From Blasia pusilla (Eukaryota): a stretch of 64,000 bases of DNA. The DNA lies in NCBI GenBank assembly GCA_050084515.1, contig CM114271.1, forward strand, positions 20,398,001-20,462,000. The letters are read 5' to 3'. Below, in pieces: positions 2,331-58,761 of the stretch; positions within the stretch are counted from its first letter, which is position 1; every line of letters starts with the position of its first letter. Made by a program: the position numbers and the translations under genes. The notes under the pieces were generated by a model, which searched no databases, was not told the origin of the DNA, and was given only the letters and a program-made list of their open reading frames with translations.

Positions 2331-2339
2331 CTTTAAATT

Positions 2340-7824: not shown

Positions 7825-7904
7825 CAACCGCCCCCCTATCTGGCAGTTGGATCTCCCTAACTCCAGATAAAAAATATCATATCTCTCGGACATGACCTAC
7901 TACC

Positions 7905-9300: not shown

Positions 9301-9639
9301 TCCCCTCCCACCTGAACCTCCTGGCTCTCTGTAGGATCTAATCCCGCTCCCTAGCACTCACTGTACTCGCTATGACGCCAGTGCGTAAGAACTCCACAAC
9401 CTCCATTTCATCCTGGATATCACGGCCACCTATCGCCTCTTCACTGACCTCTGGATCCAAAGACTCATCATCCAACCCCACCACTCGAGTCATCACCTGC
9501 GATTGACCTACCATAGTCAACCAACAAAGATAGGCAAATACATGCCAACCGGGCACCATCTCCTCATCATTCTCTCCGTGCCATCGAGCTCTTGTGTCGT
9601 CTCTCTGACTCAAACATGGGTTACGACTCAACCCATCCG

Positions 9640-10900: not shown

Positions 10901-11329
10901 ATCCCGGGACCCTTCAGCATACCCAAGTCTCTCATATTGAAGGCAAAAAAAATGACATGCCCTCTTAGAAGCCTATGAACTCGCGGTCGTTCTCCTCCTA
11001 TCAACTTGAGACCTATCACAGGCTCCCAAGGCTCCATTGTGACCTCACTCGGAGAGTACGCAACCTTCGGCTTTGGTTGCTATGTAACAACCCTAGCCAC
11101 CTCCGCAATAGTCACTCCACTCTGACCTCCTACCCCATGCTCCACATCCAAAAAATTTGAACATGTGATGCTCTGGCCGCCTTTGCAGTCTTCGCTCGAA
11201 TGACATCCCAAGAAGTCCATGGATGTCTATCTCTCCTCATCCTGCCACCAGCTAATGCCTGTACAGACCCTGCAGGCAATGGTCCAACTCGTGGACGTGA
11301 CGGCATGGATGACACTTGCATCCATCTCT

Positions 11330-11700
11330 GCTCAGCCATACTTAGGCTCACTATCCATGTGAGGTCCATCCCCTGCCCCAACACCTATCTCCGAGATGCC
11401 TGAGTCATACCTGGCACCGCCATAATACCCGTAGCAAACCCCATGGCGCGCTCGCGCTCATCTGCTGTAGGTTCCTCTAATGCTCGGATCACCTCATCCC
11501 AAATCATGCTTGGCCCTCCTTGACGAAAGGCTGGGAAGCTCACCAACATAGGTAAGGTTGCCTTCAACTCCCCCACCCTATTGGCCATCGCCAACGGTGG
11601 TCTATCATCTCGCGTAACCACCTCAGATCAACGCCCTGAGCCCAAAATAGCATCGAATATGAGATATGGTACTCTCTGGACTCCATCGTATGCTCGACTC
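11330..11700 (-). pseudogene. C-terminal part (TRD, motifs IX-X) of a DNMT3-like cytosine methyltransferase in element A
   Basis: ERERAMGFATGIMAVPGMTQASRR*VLGQGMDL resembles the DNMT3 motif IX/X pattern E.ER.FGFP..YT.V..MS..AR...LG..W. Truncated upstream by the element D insertion. Confidence 0.75.
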
Positions 11701-14700
11701 TCTCACGTCTTTTAGGATAGATCAGTGAGATCTATGAGAGCACCTTTGTGAGTAGTGGAGGACACACTTAGTAGGTCAAGGATGACCTGTTGAGGCCTCG
11801 AGAAACTTGAGAGAGCAGGTTTCCCCTTCGTTTTAGCTCATTTGGAGCCATATTGAGGAACTTACTATTTTAGTGAAGAACCATTTTGAGTATATAATCG
11901 ACTTTATATTTTTGGTAAGTGGCCCTTGACCTCCTACATCAGGTCAAGAGCCAAGGAGGTGACTTGGGAGAATAGGTTACCATGGAGAGAGCTTGGGAGA
12001 AGGGGGGTATACCTCAAGGAGAAAGAGCTTGAGAGCTCATTCTCTCTTTGTTGAACCTCTTGGCATGAGGTGGCGAAGCTATGGTCCCTTGCCTTGTGAG
12101 TGTTACCCAAGCCTCTCATTAGGAGAGTGGGTTTGATTTGACATGAGAAAGAGTGCACACATTTGAGAGCTATGGTGTGAGATGGTGTAGAGAGAGATTG
12201 GATCTTACTTTACAAAGAAAGAATGAGAGAGTGAGAGAGCTTCATGGGAGAGCTTGCTAGTCACTCGCTGGTTTTGCAGGTTGGGTTGGTGTTCCCCATT
12301 CAGCAGCTCATGGGAGTGCTCACCGGAGCAAGGGTTGCTTTGATTGTTCTTTGCATTTGCTGATTTTTCGTGTGGAAGAGTGGCGCGCGGAAGAGCTGCC
12401 CAATTTCTGATAGGGATTGATTATGGGGGCAAGTTGCCCCATTTTGGTCCTCTCAAGAGCAACATTTAGCTTGTTGATTTGTATTTTTATAGGTTTTACA
12501 TTTTGGTTGGGAGAAATCAGCGCGGAAGCGCTGCCAAATTTTGTGTAGGAGAAAGAGACATTGGGCTTTACGACAATCCCTGTCTGTTTCTACTGGAATG
12601 TCCAATTCCAAATATTTTCTGACACTATTGTAGATCATAAAGCTCTGCACGTTGTGCAACAAACGGTATGCAATTTGGAGTTGCGAGTAAAAAGTTATGG
12701 TCAATCTTGAAAATTTGCCATTGCTAGGCAATTTTTAGGGTTAAATTATTCAAACCCTAAACCAGCCGCCACGCCGGCGGCGGCCGTCACCGTCATAGTC
12801 ACCATCACCAATCAACGGTCAATCATCACCGTCAATCGTCAACCGTCATTATCAACGGTCCGTCGTCACCATCAACGGTCAACCCTCACCGTCAACGTAC
12901 CACCGTTGGCCGTTGCCGTTGCCCAGCCTTGCTTAGAGCTGCATTCGGCCATTGTCCACCCTTTGGTTACCTTTGCCGCCATTACGAAGTGGAGGGTCTT
13001 CCACGACCAGCGTTGATTCTCTGACTTGCGCCGCCACCACATACTTTGGTTTGGCCGTCACCGTCATCGCCGTTTCGTCATCAACCATTGATGGTAGATG
13101 AACTCTGGTTATGGTGTTTGAGTTTTGATTTCATGCTGCTATGTTGTGATTGGTAGCCACTCGATGACGATCGAGTACCGTGCCGTGACACACATAGCCG
13201 CAACGCGCCGCTGATTGCCGCGTTGTGCCGCTCGTGGCCGCACTGCACCGTCTCGATCGCGGACCCGCACCGTCATTGTGGACCAGAGTGTGGGTTTATT
13301 GTTGATTGAGGAGGGTATGCCGCCGAGTGCTGTATCCCACCATCGAGGGCCGTGCCGTTCCATGCCGCCTGCAACGCCGCACCGTTCCATTGGAACCGCA
13401 CTGTCCATCAAAGAGTTTTAAGCAGCATCAATACATGAGGAGTATGACTTGCTGATTGGAGGAGTTGTCTCCACAACTAAGTTGGGGTCGACATTTGCAG
13501 TTGCTGAGGAGCAACATCGACATGTGTTTCAGGTTACCTATTCTGGTCCTTTATCTTGCACGTGTGAGGGATTCTGGGATTTGGGTAGTTTATTTGGGGA
13601 TTGGGGTGTGGATGCTGAGAGCATCATTTATGTATGTGGTTTAGGGGACATAGACCTGTGTGGGATGTCCAAAGTTGAGGGTAGGTTGTCGATGAGATGA
13701 TAGCCTCGTCGATTTTCCGCACCACGCCACTTGTTGTCGCACGTTACATTTCTCGGGAGGAAGAGTGTAGATCAATTGCTGCATGTTTGGGATGAGTGAT
13801 TGAGGGATTACTCGCGAGGTTGAGAGTCATCGTGTGAGAGGGGCACGAGGGCCATCACCACGTCCTTTCAGGATTTTGAGAGGCGAGTTAGTGGACGTGA
13901 GAGTAGCTCTAGAGGGTTTACCCGGAGTGGTGGGAGGTTTCAAGGGTCTCCACGTGACACACCGCCTCGATCTCCTTCTCTGTCGTCTTCAGACGAGCGG
14001 GAGCGTGTAGAGGAGTTTGTGAGCACATCGCCACACATTATGAGTGGTCCTACCAGTTGGGTGTACGAGATGGACGATCGGGATAGAGGACCGCGTAGGT
14101 TTTCAGGTGCAGTAGGCACGGTTGAGTTGCACGATTTCATAGCAGAGTTTGGGAGTTGGTCCCCGACTCCTAGCGGGCCAGGAACTCTAGAGAGTTCAAC
14201 CAGTTTACAGCATGGAACGATATGTTCCAGCATTTAGAGGGGGCGCCCATGGACAATTACCATGAGTTCTCTCAGAGATATGCACATGAGATTGAGACGT
14301 GGAGGCTCTACTATGACCCACATTATGTGTCATGGACGGAGCCATTCCCAGATGAGGAGGAGGAGTCAGGAGAGGCTACTTCCTCTTCCACTAGTGACGT
14401 TTTAGGAGGGGTCACTTGCACGGGAGCAGTTGCACCGTCTAGTCGGGTTTGTCCCAGGTTCAACCCTGTGGTTGAGTTCTTTGCTAAGTTGAGGGCGAGC
14501 TACTAGGGGGTACGGACGGAGAAGTTGTGGAGCATCCACGACTTCCAGAGGCGCCCCGGGTGAGAGTTTGCGTGAGGCTTACACTCGCTTGCGCCGGTTG
14601 ATCAACGTCACTCATGGGGTGACAGAGGCTCAGGCTAACCAGTCATGGTATGCGATGCTAGACCGGACCCTACGGACACGGGTGCATGAGGGGGTGCTTC

Positions 14701-15095
14701 TTATGAACACCTCTCCTACGTTGAGAGATGTTTATAGGACCGCTGAGAACAATGAGCGCAACATGGCGGAGGAGAGCGTAGCCACCATGGGTTCTAGGCG
14801 AGAGCAGTTACGATTGTCTGCACTACTTGTGCAGCAACATGGACTCCGAGATAGATTGACTGTGGCACCACGAGCTCAAGGAGGATATCGGGAGGCCGTG
14901 CCATAGAGACCTACGCCTTCATATGCGGCTCAGCAGCAACCACCTACTATTACTTGTTGGTCATGTGGTGGAGCCCATCATCAACGCGATTGCACTTGTC
15001 AAGGTCATGGACGTGTGCCTCAGTATGGAGGAGGAGATGGTGTTGCACCAGGAGGTTATCACTGTGACTATTGTTAGAGGTATGGTCATACACGC
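11701..15095 (+). mobile_element. Element D: 3'-truncated subfamily-2 copy nested in element A (5' X repeat, leader, gag)
   Basis: 11701-12220 is the reverse complement of X at 29885-30398. Leader is homologous to 26100-27840. Gag 14020-15095 with CWSCGGAHHQRDC and CDYC..GH knuckles. Ends at a deletion junction into element A gag. Confidence 0.85.
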
Positions 15096-16362
15096 GCGCT
15101 CGAACAACCCCTTCCAGGCCATGAAAGGGTTGAACTGTGTCGGGGTCCGTATCTCTTGGAAGTCGCACCACGTGTCAAACTCCAAGATAAAATCATCTTT
15201 GTCGATGGTGCCCACTGCACCCGAGAAACGACGCATGCCGGATGGCCCATGTTTTCCATCTCCTGCCAAGTGATACTGCCTCTGTCTGCGATCTCGTCAC
15301 CAGACTCGGTGTATAGTGATGACAATATAGCCACGGATGGATGTCGAGGTAGCTCCTCACTCGTAACCCCTTGGTATCTCACTCCACTCTGTGTCACACC
15401 ACTACTACTGCTTGCACTACCCCGTTCTTCCGAACCTTGGAAGAACGCCGTGATGACAACCGTATCTTACGTGCTCAAGCATTGAGACTCACCGAGACTC
15501 TCCCACCCTCCTCACTAGCTCACCGATGCTAATGATAATCCTGTGATGACACACCCAACCTCACGCACATTCAACACTCAGGCTCACCATGAGCCTCTCG
15601 ACTATCTCACCTAAATCACCAACATACGCTCAGGTCATACACTTGACCCCTACTTAGCAATCGCCGTATACCCGCAAACGTGCCAAGGAGTCTACCCTTG
15701 GCACGATAACTACACCCATCTAGCACCAGCTACTACCCGACCCATCATACTCAACGACACAAGATAAGTGCGGGAACCTCATCATGCCCTCCAACCTACT
15801 GCATCGTCAACACCCACTCCATACGTGTGGCATGACAACCTCCGTAGCACAACCATCTCCTCGCACACACGTAAAACCTCTCGTCAGCATCGGCATGTGT
15901 GTCCCCATCACAACCCTCACAAATCCCAGCCATGCCCGAAAAACATTACGTCGTGCAAACCTCTCCGCCCATCCCCAAACGCACTCCATAACCTTACTCA
16001 ACTCCGTCTGAACTCAACCATGTCAGCCCGTCTACCACGTTTCCCGCACCGCTACCACGTCACCCGCACTACTACCACGTCTCCTTCACATCTACCACGT
16101 ACGCCCTACCCTGCTACCAAGTTGGATGGGAGGCGCCGAACACGGAGCTCCCGAAGTTGGCGCCAACCACGTCTGAAAAAATTGGGGGGCAGGGGGGGGG
16201 GGCGTTAGGCCCTTGGCCAACATCCCTATGCACATGTGTAGGGAAGGGGGTTGTGGGCTTGACACCTGCCTGTCACATGCACGAGGGCGGGGGCGCGAGG
16301 CAACTCGCTTGCCTATCTGCAAACAACGAATTCCCACTAGCCCCCTCACATCTTTCTCGTGT

Positions 16363-16842
16363 AAAAATAGAGAGTAGTAAAAACGGCACACCCGGCCTAA
16401 AACTCCACTCCTCAATCTACATCGGCATATTGAGCCTCGTCCATCCTGCGCTATCAAGGAATCTGGACGCTAGCACCCTAGTCCTATCTCACACACATAC
16501 AAGAGAGGTGCTCCAACGGCCCAACATGAGAAAGATGGCTTGGGAAAGCCATCTTCCTCCCTTATATTGGGTTGGGAAGAGCCAAAAGGCTCTTCCCCTA
16601 AAAATAGCTATCCTCTTGGTAACCTGCGCGGGCATGTTACCAGGGACGGGTGACGTGGTCAACAAGTCACCCGGCTGTGAAAGACCTCAACTGGAAAATT
16701 TCCAGAAACAACGTTCCTGACACAATAGACCTATCCTCAACCTCATCCGATACCGTGGGACAAAGTAACACTCAAGATAGTCCGCTGGTTCCTACGCCCT
16801 ATCCACGATAGATCTCGGCCTATCGGCTACTCAGATGTGACA
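16363..16842. repeat. 5' terminal repeat X of element A
   Basis: Direct repeat of 7222-7688, ends GATGTGACA, with no Y segment attached. Confidence 0.9.
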
Positions 16843-17060: not shown

Positions 17061-19416
17061 GGTTTGATATAGAATATTATATTATTTCTAATCTAGTGGA
17101 GAGAATCAATAAGGCATTCATATCTATAGGCCAAGAGTGACCTCATTGGGGAGGTGGCAACTTGAATAAGAAGATTTAATTTTTAAGAGCAATATGAGTT
17201 TATATTAGCTACAACCTAGTTACTATTCTACATGTGCATTTATTTAATTTTTGACTTATTTTCCTTTTTTACATACATATATGAAGATGACTTTTGACCT
17301 ATTGTATGAGGTTAGGGCTACCAAGTTAGTGACATATGTATAAAAATTACCCATGAACGGTTGGATCAACTATGTTTACCCAACATAATATCATAAATAA
17401 AGAAACCAACACCTACTATTTTTCATTACAAGTTTTTTCAAGAGAGTTTTGCAATACTTCTCTAAAGATAAGAAAATGCTATACACTACACTTAAATGTT
17501 GGATTGATGTTGTTGAAAAATAGATAGAAATGGCTTCCTTCAAAGGAGAGCTCCAAAATTTTGGTGCATATCGATGCATAATGAGAGTTTTCCTGAAATT
17601 GAAAGTGATTGGTCTATTTACTCTCTTGAATGGAGACTGAGTCAACTTATCACTTTCTAGATCTCAGAGAAGAAATTGATCGTTCAATCCCTTATTTTCA
17701 ATAGGGAAGTGGGTCGACCAATCATTTTCCATATCTTGAAGAAGAAAAATGTAGGGCTAACTCACTCAATTTTTTCATTGAAAAGAAAACTTCAATCATT
17801 TTCTAATGCTTTTTGACAAAGACATTTTTTCTTAGTTAATAATGAATCTAGATTAAAATCCTACATACTCAAAAATACTTTAGAGCTAAATAGAAAATTT
17901 GATTTATTCAAAGAAATTATATATGTTCCCACTTAAAACTATATGATTTTTTCAAAACTTATTTCAATCCAAAGTTTTGGGGGAAAAGCACCTTTTCCTT
18001 TACTTATATAATGCTTCAACTAATAATTTTTCATGGTTAAAACTTTCCTTCAAATTAAAAGGGAAAGATGAAGTTAATTTTCTCTAGGTTCAACAATAAA
18101 AGTAACTGAATGATCAGTTTCCTTTCATATCTTACTAAGGGGAACTTAAAAGAGGAAGGGCTTTAACTTAAAGAAGGGGTTACTCTAATTTTAAAGGGCA
18201 AAAGCTTAACTTGAAGGAGGAGAATGGAGCTATTTAAATTAAGATCCCTCATTAACCTCTATAATAAACTCTCCACCGTCCTTAAGTTGAAAGGGAAAAA
18301 ATAATTCTCCCATTTGAATTTGATTTCATTTTTACTACTTAAAATTTCAATTTATTTTCATAATGATTTTTTCTAACTCAAATTATTTTGGAGGAGTTAG
18401 AAAAAGATTAGGAATATCTCCTTAAAGAATATGTATCAAAAAAAAATCATCTTCCTAGAAAATTAGAACTATTTAACTTTTATCTTCACTACAATATCGT
18501 GCGCATACACATCGCTACACAACATACATCGTTGTCAACGGACACAGACATAAACACGCACAATCCTATGTTAATTCATGGCATCCAAACAACAAGACAA
18601 GAAGTACCAAAATATCTCCAAAATATATACCCTAAGATTCAATCTCTCTCACAACACCATAGTTCTCACATATGTGCACTCACATGTCTCTCTCAATATC
18701 AAACCAAACCCACTCCCATAATGAAAGGCTTGGATTACACACACAAGGTAAGCAAGACCATATCTCCGCCGCCTCATGCCAAGAGGCTCAAGCTCTCTCT
18801 CCTTGATGTATACACCTTCCCTATCCCAAGCTCTCTCCATGGTAACTTATGCTCCCAAGTCAACTCCTTGGCTCTTGACCTGATGTAGGAGGCCAAGGGC
18901 CACTTACCAAAAATAGAAAGTAGATCATATATGGTACTCAAAATGGTACTTACCTAAAATAGTAAGTTCCTCAATATGGCTCCAAATGAGTCGAAACGAA
19001 GGGGAAACCTGCTCTCTCAAGTTTCTCGGGGCCTCAGCAAGTCATCCTCAACCTATTGAGCCTATCCTCCACTACTCATGAAGGTGCTCTACTAGATCTC
19101 ACCGATCTATGCTAAAAGACATGATAGATGTCGTGCGCATATATATCCCTGTCACCGAACATACAAAAACACGCATAATCCCATGCTAACTCATGGCATC
19201 CAAACAACAAGACAAGAATTACCAAAATATCTCCAATGGCCCCCTAGCTAGTGATTAGGTCTCTCTAACTCCAGATAGCCATCTATCCCTACCTACCATG
19301 ACGTACATCTCTCGGACGCTAAGAGCGAGAAGGCCGGATGGTCATATGACCCCATCGTTAGTCGTTTTCTTGTCATCCATATCACATATATAAGTCGGAA
19401 TATAGAACCACCTACT

Positions 19417-20700
19417 CTATGTACATCTGGGACACATCCATCGTCCCTGAGGAACCCTAGTGAGAGGTGACATCAAACATGCCATATGCCATCCTCTCGA
19501 ACACCCATCACATACTAGCATAGTGGCTGCACCACGGGCCGAACCACACAACATACACCACAAGCTTGCAGGAACTATTGCTAAGCTTGGATCAATTGTA
19601 CCGTCAATGTTCGGAAGATGATATGGCGCACAGTTACGCACATGGTCCTTCCAAACCATACCATCGCGTCCCTCCAATAAGAGAACACCAGATGGCAAAA
19701 CCTCACGCACTCTCAAGATGGTGCGCCCTGCAGTCACATCCAACGTCGTGGGTGCCGTCTGCAAAAAGTAGACATAGTCTTCTTGATGAAACCTCTGAAT
19801 AGTAGGTCAATAACCACCTTCCCAAATAGTCGCATACCTCAACGTATCCCGATGTTGCGCAATTGCCAAGTTCTCAAACGCCATGGGCATCACTCTCCAA
19901 AACAACTCAGCTCTCTGAGAACATGCTCGCATCCATATATCAGGGTCATCAAGGTTCAACACCTCACCAATATCTCGACGAATGGCCGTAGGTAAATCTG
20001 GCTCTTGGCCATAAAGCAACAAGTACGGTGAGAAAGACGCTAAAGATACCTGCCTGCTGAATGTGTATCCCCTTGCCAACCACGGCAACTGGAGGTCCTA
20101 ATCTCCTAGGTGACCTCTCTGCAAGCCATACCTGCATAGTCCTCTCTTCACCGTCTGCACAATCCACTCCGCTAGTCCATCCGCCTCAGGATGATCTTGC
20201 GAAGCAATGCGGTGGTCGATCAGTGCCTGATCACACAAGGCCTGAAACTCCCCGTGGAACTTTGTACCCTGGTCAATCAACACCTCAGCTGGTGCACCAT
20301 AATGACTCTGCACTTGATCTAGGAAGGCATACGCTACTCCCTTACTCACTTTGTCAAGCAATGCAACCAACTCTATCCACTTCGAGAAGTGCTCGACCAT
20401 CACTAACACATAACGACTATGGCAAACCGTCAAAGGCAAAGGTCCTCCAAAATCCAAACTCCATCTATAAACCTAAACCCATGATCAAAAGTGGATGCAA
20501 CTGTGGAGTCGAAGCATTGAACGATGCTTGGACTCGATCACACATCATGCATCTGGCAAGAAACTGTTGAACTTCAATCCGCATGCCTCGCCACCAATAC
20601 TGAATCTGGAGCAAGTTGTACGTCCGCCTCACTCCAAAATGACCCAACTCCTTGTGGGCATGACGCACCAAATGTGCTCTCTACAAAGGATGAGGCACTA
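19417..20700 (-). pseudogene. DDE integrase with C-terminal PHD finger (element B), disrupted
   Basis: HHCC HAHKELGHFG...CMMCDR; core DFGGPLP...LIDQG...DGLAE; PHD CMLCGS..MLVCDGCSRGWHMACLMSPLTRVPQGRWMCPRC then a stop. Confidence 0.9.
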
Positions 20701-21049
20701 CACACACTCTACCATCCTCCCATACTCGCAACACATGTGTGCCCTTCCACCGGAATTGTGAGGCTCACTGTAGGATCCGATCCCGCTCTCTAGCACCCAC
20801 TGTGCTTGCGACACTGCCAGTACGGAGGTACTCCAAGACCAGTCCATCGTCATGAATGTCTTGGCCACTTGTCGTCTCCTAATCGACCTCTGGATCTAAG
20901 GACTCTCCATCAAACCTTACCATCAAAGTCTCACCAATCTGGCTCTCCATAGCCAACAAGCCCAAATAGGCTGACGCATGCCATCCTGGCACCAACTCCT
21001 CATCATTCTCACCATGCCAATGAGCTCCAGTTGCATCTCGCTGACTTGG

Positions 21050-22350
21050 GCATGGGTTATGGCTCAAACCATTTGCATCCTGGTTGAGCATCCCACGTCT
21101 ATGCACCACCTGGAAGTCATACTCTTGCAACAAAAGAGCCCACCTCGCAAGCTTCCCTGTAAGCTTTCTAGACTTCCCTTAAAGTGGCTGATGATCAATA
21201 ATGATGGTAAAGGGATTGTCGAGTAGATAACATCTAAAATGTGCAGCCCACACTGCAACCAAGCACTCACCCTCATACGAGATAAACTTTGCCTCAGCAA
21301 TATTGTTCGAGCGACTAGGGTAAGCCACCACAAACTCTTTACCATCATCGTCATGTTGGGTGAGCACGGCTCCAAGCCCCAACATGCTCCAATCGGCATG
21401 CAATTGGAAAGGACGCCCCCTTATCGGTCTCCTCAATATTGGTGCGGACGTCAATCTATCCTTGAGCATCTGAAATGATCTCTCTTGCTCATCCCCCCAG
21501 TGCCACTCCTGATCCACCTTGGTCATCAAGGTTAGCGGCTTCGCAATTGAACTGAAAACCTTGACGTACCGTCGATAGAAGTTTGCCAATCCCATGAATG
21601 CACAAACTCGACTCACATCTGTAGGGCGTGGAATGCGTGAAATAGCCTCTACCTTTTTTTGTTGCACACCAAGGCCCCCTTGGTATATTTTATGACCCAG
21701 GTACTCAATCTAGTCGTAGAAGAACTTGGACTTGCCTGGATGTAGCTTCAGCCCATGTAACTGCAATCGTCGGAACACCTTCTCTAGATGTCCTTCATAC
21801 TCCTCAACCGTGGCGCTAAAGACTACGATGTCATCAATATAACACCTAGCAAAATCCAGACCTACCAAGATCCTATGCATGACCCTCTGAAACTCAGCCG
21901 GGGTGTTCTTTAACCCGAATGGTAAGAACCGCCACTGGTACAAACAATCCTTCCCGTGAGCATCGATGCCCCAAAATGTCGTCTTCTGCCTGTCCTCCAA
22001 TCTGATAGGTAGCTGATGGTATGCGGCTCGCAAATCCAATGAACTGAAGACCTTTGCATCCCCAATCCCATCAAAGATCTCCTCAAGGATGGGCATGGCA
22101 TACCTATCGAACTTTGTCTGCCGATTGATAGGTCGGTAATCTCCACACATTCGCCTATCTGTCTAGTTGCCATGCACATCCTTCTTGGCAGGCATGACAG
22201 TGGCAGATGCATACTCTCCATACAACATCTCCACTAGTCTTGCTCCAACCAAGTCCTGGCTCCTACTCTTAATCAGAGCCCTCTCCATGTCACTGTACCT
22301 GTAGGGTCGTCAAAGATTGGCGTGTCACTCGACAACTCAATGCGGATCCC
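21050..22350 (-). pseudogene. Reverse transcriptase-RNase H (element B), disrupted
   Basis: MCGDYRPIN...FSSLDLRAAYHQLPI...LPFGLKNTPAEFQRVM...YIDDIVVFS; RNase H LHADWS...VVAY...ECL. Confidence 0.95.
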
Positions 22351-22769
22351 TAGACCCTTCAGCGTATCCAAATCATGCATACTAAATGCAAAACAGCTCC
22401 TATAACTTCTAAGGAATTGGTGTATCCGACGCCGCTCTCCTCTTGTCAACTTAGGGCCCATATCCGGCTCCCAAGTCTCCATCGTGATTACGATAGGACT
22501 CTCCGACGCGGATGTCGGTGGTTGCTATGGTGCAACCCGTCTCGGACAATAGAACTCTCATCTCCACATGTAGTACCCAAAACCATGCTTAATGATGTGG
22601 CTATCATCTCCTAGCATACGTGCAAAACATTCCAAGAAGTCCAAGGATGTCTCTCCCGATCATCCCTGGTGTGTCAATCTCCTCGCGTCTCGCCGCCAAC
22701 CACTGCCTCAACTGTCTCAGTAGGCATGGGGCTCACCAACGTAACTTTTGTGATTTATTGCATTCTCAA

Positions 22770-23380
22770 ACAATGTTGTTCAGCTACTCCTAAGCTGAAA
22801 ATCCATGTCACGCAGTTCAGGTCCACCGCCTGACCCAAGACATGACATCATGATGCCTCCGATAGTGACGGTACTACCGTTACTCTTGTGGGGAATCCCA
22901 TCGCTCGCTCTCGCTCATGGGCGTTGGGCTCCACCAACTTCTGTGCTTGATCATCCCAAACCAAGCCAGGTCCGGCCTCCTTGAATGCATAGGAAGCGGG
23001 AAAACTCACCAATGTGGGAAAGGTTGCTCGTGGCACGCCAATCCTGTTGACCACAGTCAACGGCGATCGATCATCGTGCCTCACTGCCTGTCATTGATGG
23101 CCTGGATCCAATATAGAATACACCAACAAATTTTAGGGACGCTCCACTCTCGCATAAGCCCTCCGTAATATCTCATGTGGTACCAAGTTGATCCACCAAA
23201 GATGCGAGTGGTGTGCTCTAGAACCTACACTTGCCGCATCTAACAACACTGTCGGGCCGATCCATGCGCACACCTGATGTGCACTCATCACTACGCGGGA
23301 CCTCAAATCATCCAAAATTGGCACATTCTCCAAAATGTATGCTCGAGAGCGAGGTTGATGCTCCTGATTGGAGTTCCTCT
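22770..23380 (-). pseudogene. DNMT3-like methyltransferase motifs VI-X in element B (motifs I-V deleted)
   Basis: YILENV (motif VI), PTVLLDAASVGSRAHHSHLWWINL (motif VIII; DNMT3 pattern P..IDA..VS.AHRARYFWGNL), ERERAMGFPTRVTVVPSLSEAS...VLGQAVDL (IX/X). Confidence 0.85.
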
Positions 23381-24549
23381 GACCCGTCACACTCAAGTGC
23401 AAACGTCTTGCTCCACGCGCTTTGTACATGCTGAGTGGCTAAGCGTCGAAGCTCCTCAGTCAAGCCCCAAAGTGCCACCTTTCCTCCACAAATTGATGCG
23501 GCTACCATAGCACTCCTCTGCATAGAAATGTCAGGAACGGAAGTATCTTCTACATGGACATATCCCTCAATCAAATCACTAGGCCAAGTGATTGCACTGC
23601 TAAATGCTGCTAAGGTCGCCATCTCTCTTGGCCATCGCTCGATCACTACACTTGTGAATCGAATGGGTAATGAGCTAAGGTGCCCATCACCTAACTGCCA
23701 TCCTGGTCTGTCGGATGCTGACTCCTCCAAGTAATCCAGGGAAAACCCCATCGGGTATAACACTACTCCATCAACCAAGACGTTGTAGGACTCTACATTA
23801 GTCACTATCGCCTTGGCTCGCACCACGGACTCATCTGTAGGATGTCTCGGGCAAATCCTCACCACAACCTCCTATTGGGTGATATATTGTGTGGTACTCA
23901 CTCCACCCAAGGATGTCTATATCCGGAATGGACAACGCTCCATATCGGCTCTTGTCAAGCCATCATGGGGTTGCGCTTTTGAATCCAACAAGATCCATTG
24001 CGGACTAAAAGCTCTACCTCCGGGACTCACCAACTAGAAGACATCTCCTCGATTATCCAACAACACAGCACTAGGAGAAGCCAGGGCACGCTCTATCGCG
24101 GGTCTAGCGGGCATCTCCGCCATCCTAGCAATTGTAACCTGCTATGAATCTGACGTGGACGGCGCGAGCATCCGCTCCAAGGGCCGGTCCATCACCTCCT
24201 CTGCAATCACCTCTGAATGTGATGCAAGAACTCCAACTCCATGCTTACATAGCGTAGCGGCCAGCCAGAAAGCCTCGGCGGGCATACCTCCCAACGTCAT
24301 AACATCGGAAGCAAAAAATAAAGGAGCGGGGTACACAACGGTGGCCGCCCCCAACAACGTGCTCGACACATGCCCCTCCTAAGCATCAGCAATAGCAGTT
24401 GTTGCACTCGCTTCTCCCATCGCCCTCCGTTCCTGCAAACCAACAACATCACCAACTCTCCAGGAACTCTGATGAGGACCTATCAATGGGGTCCTCATCA
24501 CCTCGGACAACGTGAAAGACTAAGGAATCCTAGTATGTTTCCATCCTCA

Positions 24550-26030
24550 CCCTCGTTGTGGATCCAACTCTACGGCTGCTCTACGCATCACAATTGAGGC
24601 GGCCTCCATCTGGGCAGCCGAGCATATCCAACCAGAATCCTCCATAACTCTGGCTGCTCCATATGATGTCGATGCCACGGATCCGGCATCGGGTAACCTC
24701 AATGCCATAGCGGCAATCTGCTCCTGTAGCTGTTGTATCTGAGCAGCCATCCCAGCCTCACATCAAGCGTCTCCCTCGACGCGTCTAGGTGGTGGTACTC
24801 TACCTCTTCCACGGGTGGCTCCACCACCTTGTCGGGCAACTCCAGCTCCTTGTCCTCCCAACGGGACCACCTGGTGCACGATCTCTAGGCCCATCTGGAC
24901 CGGCTACTTGCTCTGGTGCCCTCTGTGGCCCTTGGTCTGAACGTAACTGAGGATGTAAACTGAAACACCTGGCGCGTGTATGACCATACCTCTGACAATA
25001 GTCACATTGATAACCTCCTGCTGTAGCACCATCTCCTCCTCCATGTTGAGGCACACGTCCATGACCCTGACGAGTGAAATCACGCTGATGATGGGCTCCA
25101 CCACATGACCAACAAGTAATTGTAGGCCGCTGCTGCTCAGCCACATATGAAGGCGCAGGTCTCTATGGCACAGCCTCCCGATATCCTCCCTGAGCTCGTG
25201 GCGCCACAGTCGACCTTGCTCGGAGTCCACGTTGCTGCACAGGTGGTGCAGACAATCGTGACTGCTCTCACCATGGATTCTGGGCGAGAGCAGTCACGAT
25301 TGTCTGCTTTCCTCCGCCATGTTGCACTCAATGTTCTTGACGGTCCTAAAAAATATCTCAACGTAGGGGAGGTGTTCATAAGAAACACCCCCTCCCGCTA
25401 TCCTATCCGTAGGGTCCGATCCAGCATTGCGTACCATGACTAGCTAGATAGCCTAAGCCTCTTTCACCCCCTGAGTGACGTTGATCAACCGGAAAAAGAT
25501 AGTGTAAGCCTCACGCAAACTCTCACCCGAGCACCTTTGGAAGTCATGGATGCTCCGCAACTTCTCCGTCCGTACCCCCTGGTAGCTCGCCCTCAACTCA
25601 GCGAAGAACTCAACCACGAGGTTGAGCCAAGGACAAACCCGACTAGATGGTGCAACTGCTCCTGTGCGAGTGATCCCTCCTAAAACATCACTAGTGGAAG
25701 AGGAATTAACCTCTCCTGACTACTCCTCCTCATCTGGGAATGGCTCCGTCCATGACACATAGTGTGGGTCATAGTAGAGTCGCCATGCCTCAATCTCTTG
25801 GGCATATCTGTGGGAGAACTCATGGTAATCGTCCATGGGCATCCCCTCTAAATGCTAGAACATACCGTTCCATGTTGTAAACGGGTTGAACTCTCTAGAG
25901 TTCCTAGCCCGCTATGAGTCACATCAACTCCTAAACTCGGCAATGAAGTCGTGTAGCTCTATAGTGCCTACAACACCCGAAAACCTACGCGGTCCTCTAC
26001 CCCGGTCGTCCATCTCATACGCCCAACTCA
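24550..26030 (-). pseudogene. Gag with two zinc knuckles (element B), disrupted
   Basis: CWSCGGAHHQRD and CDYCQRYGHTRARC in ORF 24800-25144; homologous to gag at 14020-15095 and 56636-58760. Confidence 0.75.
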
Positions 26031-28094
26031 ATGTGTACGGTGGATCACTAACACACTCTTCTATATGCTCCCCCTCGTCTCAAGAAGACAAATAAGGAGA
26101 TCGAGGTGGTCTCTCACGTGGAGACCCTCGAAACCTCACACCACTCCGGGTAAACCCTCCAGAGCTACTCTCACGTCCACTACCTCGTCTCTCAAAATCC
26201 CGAAAGGACACTATGATGGCCCTCATGCCCCTCTCACATGATCACTCTCAATCTCACGAGTAATCTCTCAATCACTCAAACTAAACATGCAGCACTCAAT
26301 CTACACTCTCTCACTAAGACATGAGTTGTGCGGCAATAAGCATCGTGGTGCGGCAAATCACTAATATATCATCTCATTGACAAACCATCCTCAACTCTGG
26401 ACATCTCACACATGTCTATGTCCCCTAAACCCATACATTATCGATGCTCCTAGCATCAGCCAAATATCCCAAATAACTTCCCAATATCCGGAAATCCCTC
26501 ACAGTCGTAGAGTAAGAGACCAGAATAGGTAATGTCGATGTCCCTCCTCGGCAATTGCAAATCTCAACCCCAACTCGGTCGTGAAGATAACTCCTCCAAT
26601 CAGCAAGTCGTATTCCTCTCGTACTAACGCTGCTCAAACCTTCTCGATGTGCGGTGCAGGTCCAGCGGTCCGGTGCGGCAGTGGCGGCACAGAACGGCTA
26701 CAAACAACACGGCACTAGGGAATGGGGTGCGGCACTTGGCGGCATACCCTTCTCAATCAACAATTCACACGTTCTGATCCTTAGTGAAGGAGCGGCTCTA
26801 CGATCGAGACGGTGTAGTGCAGCCATGAGCGGCACGGCGCGTTGTGGCTACGGGCGTCACGGCACGGTATTCGATCATCATCAAGCGGCTACCAATCACA
26901 ACATAGCAGCATAAAATGAAAACTCAAACACCATAACCCGAGGTCATCTGCCATCACTGGTTGATGAGGAAACTGCGATGACGGTGGCGGCCAAAACAAA
27001 GTACATGGTGGCAACGCAAGTCAGAGAATCAATGATCGTCGTGGAAGACCCTCCACTTCCTAATGGCGGCAATGGAAATCAAAGGGTGGACAACAAACAA
27101 ACGCAGCTCTGAGCAGCGCTAGGCGGCGGCGGCGGCGGCGGCGGCCGACGGTGGACCATTGACGGTGACGGTTGACCGTTGATGGTGACGACCGCCCATT
27201 GATGGTGACCATTGATGGTGACCATTAATGGTGACCATTGGACCATTGACCATTGATGGTGATAGTTGACCGTTGACGGCGACTATGACGGCGACGGCTG
27301 GTTTAGGGTTTGAACAATTTAACCCTAAAAATTGCCTAGTAATGGTAGTTTTGCAATATTGACTATAACTTTTTTCTCGCAACTCCAAATTCCACACCAT
27401 TTGTTGCACAACGTGCACAGCTTCACAACCTATAACAATATCAAAAACTATTTTGAATTGAACATTCCCATAAAAACTGAACGGGATTGTTGTAAAGCCC
27501 AATGTCTCTTTCTCCAATACAAAATTCGGCAACGCTTCTACGCTGATTTCTCCCAACGAAAATGTAAAACCTATGAAAATACAAATCTACATGGTGCTTC
27601 CAAGAGCACCGGCATGGGGCAACCCACCCCCATAATCAATCCATATCAAAAATTGGGCAGCGCTTCCGCACGGCATTCTTCCACACAAAAAATTGGCAAA
27701 GGAAACATCTCAAGTAAGCGGCTCTTGCTCTAGTTAGCACTCCCATGAACAGTTGCACTGAGAATATGATCCCCAATATACAAAACCAGCAAGTAACTAG
27801 TGAGCTCCCCTATGAAGCTCTCTTACTCACTCATTCTCTCTTTGTAAAATAAGATCCAATCTCTCTCACAACACCATAGTTCTCACATGTGTGCACTCTC
27901 ACATGTCTCTCTCAATGTCAAACCAAACCCACTCCTCTAATGAGAGACTAGGGTTACACACAAAAGGCAAGCAAGACCATGTCCTGTGCATACACATCGC
28001 TGTCACCGAATACACACACAAACACGCACGATCCCATGCTAACTCATGGCATCCAAACAACGAGACAAGAAGTAAGTTTCTCTCTTTGTAAAGT

Positions 28095-28470
28095 AAGATC
28101 CTCAACATCTCCCAAAACAATCTGGACCGAGTATCAGCCAACCCACTACCTCGTCTAGCACTCGATTGGCCCTGACATGGCCAACCGGAAATGACCAAAT
28201 CAATGGTCCCTACCCGCTCTAAGTCCTGCGCCCCCAACAATGAAATATCCCTCGGTAGGAAACTTTGGTACCCTTGTACCGCGGACGCAGATAATAAGTC
28301 GGGAAAACGTGGGCGTAAGTGCCACATGTCGTAGTGAGACGCGCCTCGCAACCTCATCACTCTCCACATACAGGTACTGCTGTACTCGCACTCTTGCCTG
28401 CAAAACAACAGCTAACCCGGTGCTAATCTCTCCAAAGAGATCTAACACTCGAATACCCTCCTCCGGGATA
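28095..28470 (-). pseudogene. DNMT3-like methyltransferase motifs I-V in element C (one frameshift, then deletion)
   Basis: IRVLDLFGEISTGLAVVLQARVRVQQYLYVESD (motifs I-II) and RDI...IDLVISGWPCQGQS...GLADTRSRLFWEMLRIL (motifs III-V; catalytic PC retained). Confidence 0.9.
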
Positions 28471-28899
28471 CACCACACAATGGGTGTGGTATCCAAGGGT
28501 GTCATCGTAGCACTCCTTGCTTCCTCGGGTTCCTCAGACCCATCCTGCTCCGGTGCAAACGCCTCGCTCCACGCGATCTACACGTGCTCATCTGCCAATC
28601 GTCGAAGCTTCTCAATCTAACCCCACAGCGGCACCTCTCCTCCACAGAATGATGCAGCTACCATAACACTCCTCTCCATAGAAATGTCAGGAATGGGAGT
28701 ATCCTCTGCATGGACATGTCCCTCAATCAAATCACTACGCCAAGTGATGGCACTGCTTAATGCTACTAAGGTCGCCATCTCTCCTAGCCGTTGCTCGATC
28801 ACTACACATGTGAATCGAACAGGTAATGAGCTGAGGCGCCCATCACCTAACTGCCATCCTGGTGTGTAGGACGCTGACTCCTCCCGGTAATCCAGGGAA

Positions 28900-29200
28900 A
28901 ACCCCATCGGGTATAACACTGCTCCACCAACCAAGACGTCGTAGGACTCTACATCAGTCACTATCGCCTTGGCGCGCACCACGGACTCATATGTAGGATG
29001 TCCCGGGCGAATCCTCACCACGACTCCTGTCGGGTGATATAGTGTGTGGTACTCACTCCATCCAAGGATGTCTGTATCCGAAATGGACAACGCTCCACAT
29101 CGGCTCTCGTCAAGCCCAATCCTTTGAATGACGCTTTCCCCAACATCAAGGGTTGCACTCCAGAATCCAACAAGACGCGCTGTGGACTAAAAGCTCTACC
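28900..29200 (-). pseudogene. Retropepsin-type aspartic protease (element C)
   Basis: RVLLDSGVQPLMLG active-site motif and downstream YDVLVGGAVL, separated by a frameshift. Confidence 0.75.
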
Positions 29201-32200
29201 TCCAGGACTCACCAACTGGAAGACCTCTCCTCGGTTATCCAGCAACACAACACCAAGAGAAGCCATGGCACGCTCTATCATGGGTCTAGCGGGCATCTCC
29301 GCCATCCTAGCAGCCGCAGCCTGCCATGAATCTGACGTGGACGGTCCGAGCATCCGCTCCAAGGGCAAGTCCATCACCTCCTCTGCAATCACCTCTAAAC
29401 GTGATGCAAGAACTCCAACTCCACGCTTACATAGCAAAGCGGCCAGCCGAAAAGCCTCGGCGGGCGTACGTCCCAACGTCATAACATCGGAAGCAGAAAA
29501 TAAAGGACTGCGGTACACAACGGTGGCCGCCCCCAACAACATGCTCGACACATGCCTCTCCTGAGCATCAACAATAGGAGTCGTCGCACTCATTTCTCCC
29601 ATCGCCCTCCGTGCTTGCACACCAACAACATCACCAACTCTCAAGGAACTTTGATGAGGACCCATCGATGGGGTCCTCATCGCTTCGAACAACGTGAAAG
29701 ACTGAGGAAGCCTAGTCTGTTCTTTGGCTTCCCCTTGCTATGGATCCAACTCTGCGGCTGCTCTACACGTCACAACTGCGGCGGCCTCCATCTGGGCAAC
29801 CCCGCACATCCAACCAGGATCTTCCAGATCTCTGGCTGCTCCATATGATGTCGATGCCACGGATCCGACATCAAACGGAGCAATCTCTCTTTGTAAAGTA
29901 AGATCCAATCTCTCTACACCATCTCACACCATAGCTCTCAAAAGTGAGCACTCTCTCTCATGTCAAACCAAACCCACTCTCCTAATGAGAGGCTTGGGTT
30001 ACACTCACAAGGCAAGGGACCATAGCTCCGCCGCATCATGCCAAGAGGTTCAACAAAGAGAGAATGAGCTCTCAAGCTCTCTCTCCTTGGGATATATATA
30101 CCCCTCCCCTCTCCCAAGCTCTCTCCATGGTAACCTATTCTCCCAAGTCACCTCCTTGGCTCTTGACCTGATGTAGGAGGTCAAGGGCCACTTACCAAAA
30201 ATAGAAAGTCGATCATATACTCAAAATGGTACTTATCTAAAATAGTAAGTTTCTCAATATGGCTCCAAATGAGCCAAAACAAAGGGGAAATCTGCTCTCG
30301 GGGCCTCTGCAGGTCATCCTCGATCTCCTAGGCATGTCCTCCACTACTCTTGAAGACGCTCTACTAGATCTCACCGATCTATCCTAAAGGACGTGACAAC
30401 CATAGCTCCGCCGCCTCATACCAAGAGATTCAGCAAAGAGAGAATTAGCTCTCAAGCTCTCTCTCGTTGAGGCATATCCCTCCCCTCTCCCAAGCTCTCT
30501 CCATGGTAACCTATTCTCTCAAGTCACCTCCTTGGCTCTTGACATGATGTAGGAGGTCAAGGGCCACTTACCAAAAATAGAAAGTTGATCATATACTCAA
30601 AATGGTGCTTTACTAGATCTCACCGATCTATCATAAAAGACTATTGTTGATATGGTGAAAAATAGCTTACACGTGAGCGTATAGCCTAGATCATAGTTAT
30701 GAGACTTGTTATTTTTTACATACCCAACTTTGCTAACTACATCAAACGTGGTTATAATATACTTCTAGAAAAAATCACCTTCACTGAAATTTAACAGATT
30801 TCATAAATTGATTTAAACACCATTTTAGTTTTTTTGTATCATACCCTTTCTTCCCCTATTTTAGAAAACTTTTGGAATTTCAAGATTCGTCCTTTTGTGC
30901 TTTGCAAAACATCTTGCATATTTGTGAAAGTTGAATCTTGATTGGTTGAAGATAAAATATAATAAGCCCTTTTTTTTTAATGAACTCCCTTCATGGTTTT
31001 TTAATGGCTAAATCTTTGATGGACCAAAATAACTAATTTAAAATTTTGATTGAAAGTTTGTCGAGGTCTTCTTCAACATAAAATTGAAGCTACAAAATTA
31101 CATTTTTGCTGTACAAAGGTTTGTATTTTTTGGGAGTTTTGATTTCTTGCTTCAGAAAGAATTTATTTTTGGAGTTGAGATCATTTTCGACAAGACAAGA
31201 CTCATAAGTATTTCCCAATAGAAGATCATCGAGGAAATTTTTCGTAATCTCCAAAAATCATGAAATTTTATGCTTGTCTATGAAAGAACATAAGTGAAAA
31301 AAAATTTAACCCAGAATTCAAGAATTTCAAAATATCAAAAGACATTTTTTCTAAGGAAAAGAAAGAAAAAAATTGAAACTTGAAAGTGATTTCCCAATCA
31401 ACTTTCTAATTGAGAATTCAATGATCTAAACCCTGTAAGAATTTAGGATGAAACCAAGGTTGAGGAATCCCAACAGGGAAAGAAAATGCAATTGTCAAAA
31501 CAGCAAGCGTCTTGATCACAGTAGATCAAAATGTCAACCAACCCAAATTTAACCAACCATTGTCAGATTAAACTAGTTATGGTTATGTAACTAGAGGCCA
31601 TAATTTTGGAAAACTATTCCTACATGTCTAGGATTTCAATTTCCATTCTACAATTTTTATTGACTTCAAAATTTTAGCAATTTTCAAATTTAAAAAATAT
31701 ATAAAAAATTGCATAACTTTCAAATTAGGGGATTGCGAAACCAAGAGGAACTTGGATTCACACAGAGGAAGTTGGTTAATATTTTATTTCAATTAAATTT
31801 TTTGTTAATTTAGAGAAAGGATATTCAACCACAAAGTGAATTTCAGTGATCGTTTCATATATATGCTAAAAGAATGATCATTGAGACTCTTAAAATACTT
31901 GATAGGCAATCGAAAAAAATACTCTCGCTCAAATTTCACTCACATTTGAGAGTTTATTGGCTGATCAATTTACCTCTTAACTTGTTGAAAATTGATTATT
32001 TATATGACTCTAATCCATTAAGAGATATTTGGTAAATTTATTTCCTTTCCAAATTGTGATTTGAGATCGTAAATATGAGATCATATCCATATTTATAAAG
32101 TAAAATTCTTACTTGTTGATTTCCTTATTGATTATTAGAAATCAATAAGTATGAATTTTACTTTCTTAATTTTGAAGGGTCCAATTCTACTAACTAATGA

Positions 32201-38699: not shown

Positions 38700-39780
38700 A
38701 AGCTGAGTCAAGACTAGTGAAGATGTTTTATGGGAAGTATGTAATTGCCATAAGTTATGCACACCAAGAAGGATGTGCATATAAATGAGACACGTGGGAA
38801 GATGTGCATAGAGTGTCATTCTCTAAATCGATTAACAAAGGTTGATAGATATGGTAAGCAATGCCAAACCGTGATGGGATCTATAAAGATCTTCAATTCA
38901 TTGGATCCCCAAGAAAAATACCATCAACAACATGTCAAATTGGAGGACATGTAGAAGATGAATTTTTTGGGCATCAACTATCATGGAATGGATTATTTGC
39001 ACTAGAGGCGCTTCTTATTGTTTGGGTTGAAGAATGCTCTTGCTATTGGTAGAGTTTCAGAGGACCATGGATAGGATCTTGGCAGGTTTTCATTTTTCTA
39101 GGTGTTGTATGGATAATTTTATTGTCTTTAGAACCATGGGAAGGAACCATAAGTGGCATCTTGCGAAGTGTTTCATCAATCATAGTTACATGGATTTAAG
39201 TTACATAGAAGAAAGTGCAAGTTCTTCATTATTCAAATTAAGTATCTCAATCATATCATATATCAAGGTGGCTTAGCAATTCAATATACGAAGGTGGCAA
39301 CTATTTCATATATGCTATGCCCTCTAGATGTGAGTCTAGTTTGTGCATTCATAAGAGTGGAAAACTTCTATCAATCGCATGTCAAGGGGTTTAGTGCAAT
39401 TGCAAGGCCTGTGACTTTACTAATCAAGATAGATCATGAGTGATATTTAAGGAGATGAGAAGGAGTCTATTGTTTCCCCTTGATTTTTCATCAAGGGTAA
39501 GTGTGGAAGAGGTGATAAGTGTACACATGTCACCAAGGAGATTGCTTGGAGAGAAGGAAGAGGGTATACCTCAAATAGAGAGAGCTTGGACAACTCATTC
39601 TCTCTTTTTTGAACCTTGTTCCATGAGCCGGTAGAGCTCTAGTCCTCCTTGCTTTATGAGTAACCCAAGTCTCTCACCATAAGAGTGGGTTTGGTTTAAG
39701 ATGAAAGAGAGCTATATAGTAAGTGAGATCTGATTTCTGAATTGATTGGGGATATTTTGATACATGATCATGTGTATGTA
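38700..39780 (+). pseudogene. Highly decayed RT/RNase H and terminal-repeat fragments of the same gypsy-like family
   Basis: KKDVH...KMCIECHSLNRLTKVDRY and EFQRTMDRILAGFHFSRCCMDNFIVF align with the RT of elements A and B; 39500-39720 resembles reverse-complement X. Confidence 0.7.
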
Positions 39781-58600: not shown

Positions 58601-58761
58601 AGAGCAGGGCAGGTACCGTGAGCCTATGAGGCAACGACCCGCACCTATATATGTTGCCCAGCACTGACCGATGTGGTCTTGTTGGATGTGTGGAGGGGCC
58701 CATAGGCTGAGAGACTGCCCACAGCATGGGAGAGGACCACCAGCGCCTCCGATTGCTCAGG
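55621..58761 (+). mobile_element. Element F: 5' part (partial X, leader, gag) of a subfamily-1 copy, interrupted twice
   Basis: TGTCACATCTGAGTAGCCGATAGG is the reverse complement of the element A terminus at 16842. Leader and gag are homologous to 15100-16200. Knuckle CWMCGGAHRLRDC near 58680-58720. Confidence 0.85.
57152..58154 (+). mobile_element. Solo LTR (1003 bp) of a chromovirus family
   Basis: TGTCGCG...CGCGACA; 5-bp flanks CCTCT/CCTTT; same sequence as 58762-59763 (inverted) and 62264-63260. Confidence 0.9.

Follow-up and report, generated by a model that had tools for sequence, protein, structure and literature searches.

Decayed Ty3/gypsy-type retrotransposons with a DNMT3-like methyltransferase domain in Blasia pusilla

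Copies of the element in the window

The window analyzed here is a 64,000-nucleotide stretch of Blasia pusilla contig CM114271.1 (assembly GCA_050084515.1, positions 20,398,001 to 20,462,000). It contains pieces of a retrotransposon that carries a cytosine methyltransferase (DNMT) domain inside its polyprotein. Three copies (A, B, and C), all on the minus strand, and an oppositely oriented fragment (A') were mapped by self-blastn and by tblastn against a Marchantia protein (P0009) and a metagenome polyprotein (P0175). Motifs were located in stop-to-stop open reading frames (ORFs) and in three-frame translations. The region very probably consists of dead, rearranged Ty3/gypsy-type copies that belong to the same lineage as the Dnmt3-carrying Gypsy of Klebsormidium nitens and have their nearest relatives in bryophytes. 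The polyprotein of this lineage has the order gag (CCHC), protease, DNMT3-like methyltransferase, reverse transcriptase (RT), RNase H, integrase, and PHD finger, and the element is bounded by split direct repeats in the order b-coding-a-b-a. Feature coordinates are collected in Table 1.

Copy B (27983-18524) contained, in sense order, a 'b' end, a leader, gag with CCHC knuckles, protease, a DNMT domain without its N-terminal half, RT, RNase H, integrase, and the repeats a-b-a. The Ty3/gypsy pol order of RT, RNase H, and DDE integrase was found in copy B (RVT_1, RT_RNaseH_2, and rve) and likewise in copy A. The remaining DNMT half of copy B included ILENVP (23336-23319), SRAHHSHLWWINL (23222-23184), FPTLVSF (23021-23001), ERERAMGFP (22916-22890), and LGQAVDL (22838-22818); in motif VIII the conserved R-P-R was replaced by H-S-H. 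Motifs I-V were lost by an out-of-frame internal deletion corresponding roughly to P0009 residues 852-997. The C-terminal region of the copy B integrase was homologous to the PHD region of copy A (76.6% identity to 7900-8387) and had seven stops within 19412-19900.

Copy C was a fragment (30396-28094) in which 'b' was followed straight by the protease region and then by DNMT motifs I-V, with gag absent. The protease motif LLDSGVQ (29173-29153) lay upstream of the DNMT piece, and the protease region was 85.8% identical at the nucleotide level to copy B 23373-24690. The DNMT piece matched PF00145 with 34.1 bits against a cutoff of 22 (E = 2.6e-8). Its motif I, IRVLDLFGEISTG (28454-28416), reads FGE where relatives read FGG; catalytic motif IV, GWPCQG (28186-28169), has an intact PCQ; and RSRLFWEMLRIL was found at 28129-28094. 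A frameshift was located near 28320. At 28094 the DNMT homology stopped, and the coding sequence ran into repeat-end sequence and then into the short repeat 'a', which was tied to 'b' by read joints in a DNA sequencing run (X17). The copy B half (P0001, with X at stops) matched a Calypogeia fissa protein at 66% identity (E = 1.6e-72); together with the PF00145 match of copy C, this places the DNMT observation far beyond chance.

Copy A (~11702-7905) started inside the DNMT domain, where it was cut at ~11702 by the start of the inverted A' 'b'. The motifs LPMLVSF (11555-11535), ERERAMGFA (11459-11433), and LGQGMDL (11381-11361) were retained, and the PHD finger at 8231-7905 matched PF00628 (E = 1.1e-9). 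Copy A was 72.7% identical to copy B over 2.6 kb, and A' was 80.5% identical to copy B 27971-24972 in inverted orientation. The A/A' composite was bracketed by a 479-bp direct repeat (7221-7688 and 16364-16842, 89.6% identity), which may be the long terminal repeat pair of a different, older element hosting A and A'.

An earlier note, made from this DNA alone, had reported three copies with methyltransferase pieces at the same polyprotein position. This held, and every motif it quoted was recovered from the minus strand, at most a few bases from where it had placed them. Another candidate reading was that copy C and the 3' part of copy B are two halves of one element split by an insertion, since the DNMT of copy C stops near residue 993 of P0009 and that of copy B resumes near residue 998. 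This candidate was rejected on the identities of the 'b' repeats. The 'b' of copy C was 88.5% identical to that of A' (11703-12225, inverted) and 79.8% identical to the 3' 'b' of copy B (18633-19124), while the 5' 'b' remnant of copy B was 89.6% identical to its own 3' 'b' (18633-18764) and 80.1% identical to the copy C 'b'. Copies C and B are therefore separate insertions.

Three of the five breakpoints mapped in A, A', B, and C fell in or at the DNMT domain (11702/11703, 28094, and ~23342-23407), which makes up about a tenth of the element. At two of these three, the adjoining sequence was the 5' end of a further family copy; the number is small and the copies were picked for their DNMT pieces.

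The a-b-a at the 3' end of copy B and the 'b' remnant at its 5' end match the layout A-coding-B-A-B. The 'b' of A' and that of copy C started at the same base, with unrelated sequences upstream. A complete example was found among 80 related metagenome loci: locus L065 (6000-15203) contained 'b' (6000-6336), gag to integrase (7490-14206), and a 3' end of 'a' (14634-14748), 'b' (14753-15089; 90.8% identical to the first 'b'), and 'a' (15089-15203; 93.9%). Of the 13 loci flanked on both sides by at least 4.3 kb, 2 had the full b-coding-a-b-a (L065, and L047 at 1768-10971), and an a..a pair downstream of the DNMT was present in 11 of the 26 loci with at least 4.3 kb downstream. Related loci lacking the complete repeat layout were truncated or decayed. 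Split direct repeats, an unusual layout, are combined here with a DDE integrase, not a tyrosine recombinase.

Table 1. Features of the element copies in the window, with strand and basis of assignment
Feature	Position	Strand	Basis or detail
Copy C 'b', partial tandem duplicate	30399-30641		
Copy C 5' repeat 'b' (~500 bp)	29881-30396	-	self-blastn
Copy C protease region	28529-29911	-	tblastn, Marchantia P0009 residues 401 to ~860; one frame change
Copy C DNMT motifs I-V	28094-28454	-	PF00145, E = 2.6e-8
Short repeat 'a' (~100 bp) between copies C and B	27979-28074	-	86% to 19128-19221 and 18526-18606
Copy B 5' 'b' remnant	27850-27983	-	last 134 bp; remainder deleted
Copy B gag with CCHC knuckles	24944-25998	-	tblastn, P0009 residues 9-354; ORFs
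Copy B protease region	23407-24759	-	tblastn, P0009 residues 395-842
Copy B DNMT motifs VI-X (P0001)	22782-23342	-	one frame, 3 stop codons
Copy B RT and RNase H	21179-22162	-	RVT_1 22162-21710, E = 3.9e-24; RT_RNaseH_2 21709-21179, E = 2.5e-25
Copy B integrase and C-terminal region	19412-20680	-	rve 20472-20098, E = 2.6e-10
Copy B 3' end repeats, sense a-b-a	18524-19236	-	a 19236-19141, b 19124-18633, a 18621-18524
Fragment A', opposite-oriented 5' element part	11703-15097	+	'b' 11703-12225, leader, gag to P0009 residue 344
Copy A DNMT C-terminal part	11202-11702	-	motifs IX-X and linker
Copy A RT to PHD	7905-10843	-	RT 10843-10526, RNase H 10282-9761, integrase 9061-8747, PHD 8231-7905

Methyltransferase family, relatives, and two layouts

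PDB sequences were searched with P0003, a 368-aa member of the family in which the domain is complete. The best matches were human DNMT3A (E = 6e-12), DNMT3B (E = 1.4e-9), and DNMT3C (E = 6e-9), followed by tobacco DRM (E = 1.2e-8), Arabidopsis DRM2 (E = 1.6e-4), M.HaeIII and M.HhaI (E = 1e-4 to 1e-3), and DNMT2 (E = 0.007-0.02). No DNMT1, MET1, or CMT chain was matched at E ≤ 1. The tobacco DRM match placed only query residues 44-168 onto chain residues 228-346, and such a partial match, of the query's N-terminal part on DRM's C-terminal part, is expected of a permuted enzyme. In P0003 and in the window pieces the motif order was I, IV, VI, VIII, IX, X, which is unpermuted, unlike DRM. The PDB E-values, along with a published tree, support a DNMT3-like, non-permuted domain. 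The proposal of a retrotransposon-borne C5 methyltransferase of this kind between protease and RT was thus borne out by domain searches and PDB ranking, as far as sequence comparison reaches.

Catalytic residues were counted by alignment column in 29 proteins of one domain layout (T1) and 34 of another (T2), both described below. The catalytic Cys was present in 25 of 29 T1 rows (the other four were gaps) and 34 of 34 T2 rows, the Glu of ENV in 28 of 29 and 34 of 34, and the two Arg of motif VIII (R.R) in 25-27 of 29 and 33-34 of 34. Motif X residues were conserved in both layouts as well. The residue before the catalytic Cys was Glu instead of the canonical Pro (ECQ versus PCQ) in 13 of 29 T1 rows and 17 of 34 T2 rows.

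A word-indexed search with P0001 gave 20 matches at E ≤ 0.001 among 496 candidates. Several were Marchantia polymorpha models 1159-1333 aa long; the others came from Calypogeia fissa, Sphagnum species, and metagenomes, the last without names. With P0003, most of the matches listed (120 of 165) were nameless; the named eukaryotes among them were all Calypogeia, Marchantia, Riccia sorocarpa, and Sphagnum, no vascular plant was named among them, and one carried a bacterial metagenome bin label. The suggested land-plant occurrence appears to hold: among the matches listed, the named relatives from both searches were all liverworts and Sphagnum. An exhaustive representative search of 1.84 billion proteins returned 4268 matches at E ≤ 0.001, of which 965 remained at a cutoff of 1e-10 and 269 at 1e-30; the best 150, all at E ≤ 4e-44, were the relatives examined. 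A protein atlas yielded only generic C5-methylase clusters (Streptophyta, phage).

Layouts were typed by locating domains with phmmer in 189 proteins with a DNMT match. The T1 layout, with the DNMT after gag/protease or before RT, was found in 31 proteins. The T2 layout, with the DNMT after RT/RNase H or before integrase, was more numerous (90 proteins), and the remaining 68 were DNMT-only fragments. In the continuous T1 protein P0175 (2327 aa), Pfam domains occurred in the order zf-CCHC, Asp_protease_2, DNA_methylase, RVT_1, RNase H, Integrase_H2C2, rve; in the T2 protein P0020 (1991 aa) the order was RVT_1, RNase H, DNA_methylase, Integrase_H2C2, rve, PHD. A PHD finger followed the integrase in at least 30 T2 relatives. 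Named T1 members came from Marchantia, Calypogeia, Sphagnum fallax, Closterium sp. NIES-54 and NIES-68, and Klebsormidium nitens (GAQ93235.1). The sole named T2 member was a 'pol' protein of Scenedesmus sp. PABB004 (KAF8056149.1); P0029 and P0074 were also T2. The domain thus persists in two layouts across chlorophytes, charophytes, and bryophytes.

The K. nitens protein (GAQ93235.1, P0095) repeated the domain order of the window, with zf-CCHC followed by Asp_protease_2 and DNA_methylase. A single collinear alignment to Marchantia P0009 covered it from protease through DNMT (29% identity, E = 1e-54), and the window aligned to P0009 throughout. The domain order of the window is therefore that found in the alga hosting the published family.

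A quick maximum-likelihood DNMT tree without an outgroup was built from P0001, 29 T1 rows, and 34 of the 90 T2 rows, which were taken in order of id so that the other 56 were left out. One branch split T1 from T2 (SH-aLRT 97). P0001 grouped with Calypogeia, Sphagnum, and Marchantia in a starred clade of 12 rows (SH-aLRT 96), and its nearest row was Calypogeia (67% identity over 184 columns; pairing support 81). It is possible, if rather doubtful, that the Dnmt3-carrying, PHD-finger Gypsy lineage was inherited from streptophyte algae into land plants and is still transcribed and recently amplified here and in Marchantia. With about the same reserve, the different placement of the DNMT in pol in the sister group (chlorophytes, metagenomes) might reflect either relocation of the module or a second acquisition, in both cases inside a single ancient Viridiplantae lineage.

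The distribution of the domain bears on two other accounts of the window. A one-off capture of a host DNMT3, a host gene interrupted by nested insertions, or a local chimera or assembly artefact could be suspected in a nest of rearranged elements with so many of its mapped breakpoints in or at the DNMT. The same order nevertheless occurs in one continuous frame in relatives from other genomes (P0175, P0187, and P0005), the three window copies share the polyprotein position of the DNMT, 31 proteins have the DNMT adjacent to protease or RT, and DNA reads include tens of further copies of the copy C DNMT half at ≥95% identity. A one-off capture or assembly chimera is effectively excluded; the domain is present in several copies and many genomes, not as the single gene capture that the earlier note had named as a refuting case. 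It is also very unlikely that a gag-protease-DNMT unit was domesticated as a bryophyte cellular gene, of which the window pieces would be family relics. Several Marchantia models (1159-1278 aa) do end shortly after the DNMT, just before RT, and one cluster has 18 member sequences. Against this, P0005 (Marchantia) and P0019 (Sphagnum) continue into RT and integrase, the DNMT of copies A and B is directly followed by RT, RNase H, and integrase, the window copies are repeat-flanked and multi-copy, and copies C and B diverged neutrally. The window pieces are decayed transposon relics, not a host methyltransferase gene.

Decay, copy number, and transcription

All window copies were dead, with stop codons, frameshifts, the deletion of the DNMT N-terminal half in B, and the truncation of C. 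In the codons compared, stops per segment numbered 3-6 in copy A and 1-3 in copy B (DNMT C-terminal half, RT, RNase H, integrase); in the protease region copy C had three and copy B six. The protease regions of C and B gave a dN/dS of 0.90 over 402 codons, which is neutral divergence. Between A and B, pN and pS were 0.324 and 0.804 for the DNMT C-terminal half and 0.138 and 0.663 for RT, and pN was 0.171 for integrase. By these comparisons A and B are old subfamilies. Since pN was far below pS, the DNMT was under constraint while the A and B lineages diverged, less tightly than RT.

One DNA run (X17) and three RNA runs with the same species label were mapped on 18600-30400. Among 6431 DNA reads, 6239 were only 95-99% alike to the window and so came from other copies. 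DNA depth, summed over both directions, was ~70-160 over the copy C protease region and DNMT N-terminal half (about 80 over the DNMT half), ~350-540 over 'b', and 2.5-5.5 over the copy B DNMT C-terminal half. If the 192 reads at ≥99% identity represent this locus (~2.4-fold, a rough inference), C-like sequence is present in tens of copies.

The RNA runs contributed 255, 279, and 260 reads, nearly all with the first mate on the plus strand, and depth over the copy C DNMT half (28056-28449) was 1.5-3.7. In the usual stranded protocol this orientation corresponds to RNA from the minus strand, the sense strand of the element. The RNA reads, too, were mostly 95-99% alike to the window, indicating low-level transcription of the family somewhere in the genome, not necessarily of the window copies.

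Within 18600-30400, differences with A/T in the window and G/C in the X17 reads of other copies outnumbered the reverse about two to one (T>C 119 and A>G 109 versus C>T 58 and G>A 51). Deamination of methylated cytosines would be expected to leave such an A/T bias in old copies.

Elsewhere in the window, a further gag fragment of the same family was found on the plus strand (56792-57043 and 58239-58736). It was interleaved with three copies of an unrelated repeat of ~1 kb (57152-58157, 58759-59764, and 62263-63260; 93-97% identity, one inverted). Other Gypsy-type RT/integrase remnants, 25-34% identical to P0175, were located at 3251-4729 (+), 38754-39440 (+), and 61086-61846 (-), the last with an Integrase_H2C2 match at 61415-61846 (E = 7e-22). 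The window is a transposon nest. A 596-aa ORF at 49879-51666 (-) had no Pfam family, and its sole match was a Marchantia DNA cross-link repair 1A protein (SNM1-like, SAM-domain protein), which covered 34% of the query with 28% identity. This ORF, the one clear cellular frame, probably represents an exon of a host gene, and a 243-aa frame just downstream (48143-48871, -) may belong to the same gene. The liverwort and Sphagnum relatives of the element, along with this Marchantia match, would by themselves make a bryophyte host likely, perhaps a liverwort.

Possible function and comparison with known elements

Retrotransposons that encode the very enzyme by which they are usually silenced are a familiar curiosity, and to our knowledge their function has never been demonstrated. 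In intact members of the lineage, the DNMT may methylate the element's own new DNA or insertion and the integrase PHD finger may read chromatin to steer integration, a reading drawn from the conserved residues and domains that is tentative and falls somewhat short of an even chance. The DNMT would be made as part of Gag-Pol and would be a working de novo C5 methyltransferase. Its targets, methylated de novo, would be cytosines in newly made DNA of the element or in a fresh insertion, and this methylation would set the epigenetic state of the element. Integration would be steered by the PHD finger at the end of the integrase, through its reading of histone tails. The hypothesis of self-methylation was already raised by the authors of PMC5890265 (de Mendoza 2018), in the part of that paper available.

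Alternatively, the DNMT and PHD finger could be mainly a chromatin-binding or tethering module for integration targeting, or the enzyme could act on another substrate (RNA, host loci), which we consider unlikely. The PHD finger of copy A and of the T2 relatives noted above is at the integrase C-terminus, the position at which chromoviruses carry a chromodomain. The catalytic Cys, the Glu of ENV, R.R, and motif X, kept in nearly all members of both layouts, would be superfluous for a pure binding module. In the accessible portion of PMC5890265, moreover, the Dnmt3 domains of the dinoflagellate element SymbioDIRS methylated CG de novo in yeast.

Several points weigh against self-methylation by a DNMT3-like enzyme of this lineage. 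No window copy is intact, so no active enzyme is shown here, and most known copies also appear decayed, since the 80 related metagenome loci had six plus-strand ORFs of ≥400 aa, of which three covered the DNMT. The PF00145 search that the earlier note had proposed was positive for the copy C piece, but the copy B half alone had no match at E ≤ 1. Silent sites between A and B were saturated (pS 0.66-0.80), so that dN/dS for the DNMT was not computable. The DNMT tree contained T1 and T2 rows and P0001 without cellular DNMT3, DRM, MET1, or CMT sequences, and the DNMT3 assignment comes from the PDB E-values and the published tree. Two further points keep the tethering alternative alive. The ECQ of about half the family is unusual for C5 methyltransferases and could mean altered chemistry, and when the K. 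nitens DNMT was assayed in yeast no methylation was detected, a result the authors call inconclusive (PMC5890265, available part). Self-methylation coupled to PHD-guided integration remains the reading we prefer for intact members.

Should some copies be active, a land-plant methylome could be shaped in part by de novo methylation from a transposon-encoded enzyme, and what a transposon gains from its own DNMT could then be tested in a plant amenable to genetics. The lineage is multi-copy and transcribed in bryophytes, includes annotated but unremarked Marchantia polymorpha proteins, and extends from algae to land plants. Its presence in bryophytes offers a candidate experimental system. Pieces annotated as 'DNA (cytosine-5)-methyltransferase' should carry a transposon-derived flag in annotation pipelines.

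A Gypsy-borne Dnmt3 is already published as a concept, from a green alga, and the window copies are not a new kind of element. The available text of PMC5890265 describes Dnmt3-related, unrearranged, intronless DNMTs inside the Pol ORF of K. nitens LTR Gypsy elements (KnitGypsy-Dnmt3), with Ka/Ks below 0.2 and DIRS-like repeats in the order 'A-coding region-B-A-B'. This publication and the CCHC-protease-DNMT order of GAQ93235.1 count against the earlier suggestion that the domain set was undescribed; GAQ93235.1 was not confirmed in that text as one of the authors' own KnitGypsy-Dnmt3 copies. Marchantia, mosses, and liverworts had zero occurrences in the same text. A preprint (10.64898/2026.05.21.726589) mentions 'streptophytes (Gypsy-DNMT3)' and PMC12344493 cites the de Mendoza 2018 work, in the parts available. 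The T2 layout was unmentioned in the available parts of PMC5890265 and the preprint. A full-text literature search, with most subscription journals outside its coverage, found no description of bryophyte elements of the Gypsy-DNMT3 kind. The host range, with the lineage in land plants including Marchantia, its abundance here, and the second domain layout appear undescribed.

Cellular DNMT3A, DNMT3B, and DNMT3C share with the family motifs I, IV, VI, and VIII, which align in the same order, and motif X, which aligns weakly (a second stretch, 3.4 bits), also in the same order. The family differs from them in lacking PWWP and ADD, in having PCQ or ECQ, not PCN, and in being embedded in a retrotransposon polyprotein. 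In T2 elements (Scenedesmus KAF8056149.1 and many metagenome contigs), as in the window family, RT, RNase H, and integrase are of Gypsy type, a PHD finger follows the integrase, and the DNMT belongs to the same clade (E ≤ 1e-44 to P0003); their DNMT lies between RNase H and integrase, whereas that of the window family lies between protease and RT.

SymbioDIRS-Dnmt3 of Symbiodinium (PMC5890265, available part) has a Dnmt3-type domain in pol and the A-coding-B-A-B layout in common with the window elements. It is a dinoflagellate DIRS element with a tyrosine recombinase, whereas the window elements have a DDE integrase (rve). Compared with KnitGypsy-Dnmt3, the window host is apparently a bryophyte, not a charophyte alga, and the window copies are all broken. 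Identity to K. nitens GAQ93235.1 was ~29% over protease and DNMT, and the K. nitens sequence was placed near the T1/T2 split in the tree, outside the bryophyte clade. A PHD finger is present in window copy A; its presence in KnitGypsy-Dnmt3 was not confirmed in the available text of PMC5890265. By that text, a Gypsy-type pol with an unrearranged Dnmt3-like domain in the polyprotein and the A-coding-B-A-B repeat layout are common to KnitGypsy-Dnmt3 and the window elements.

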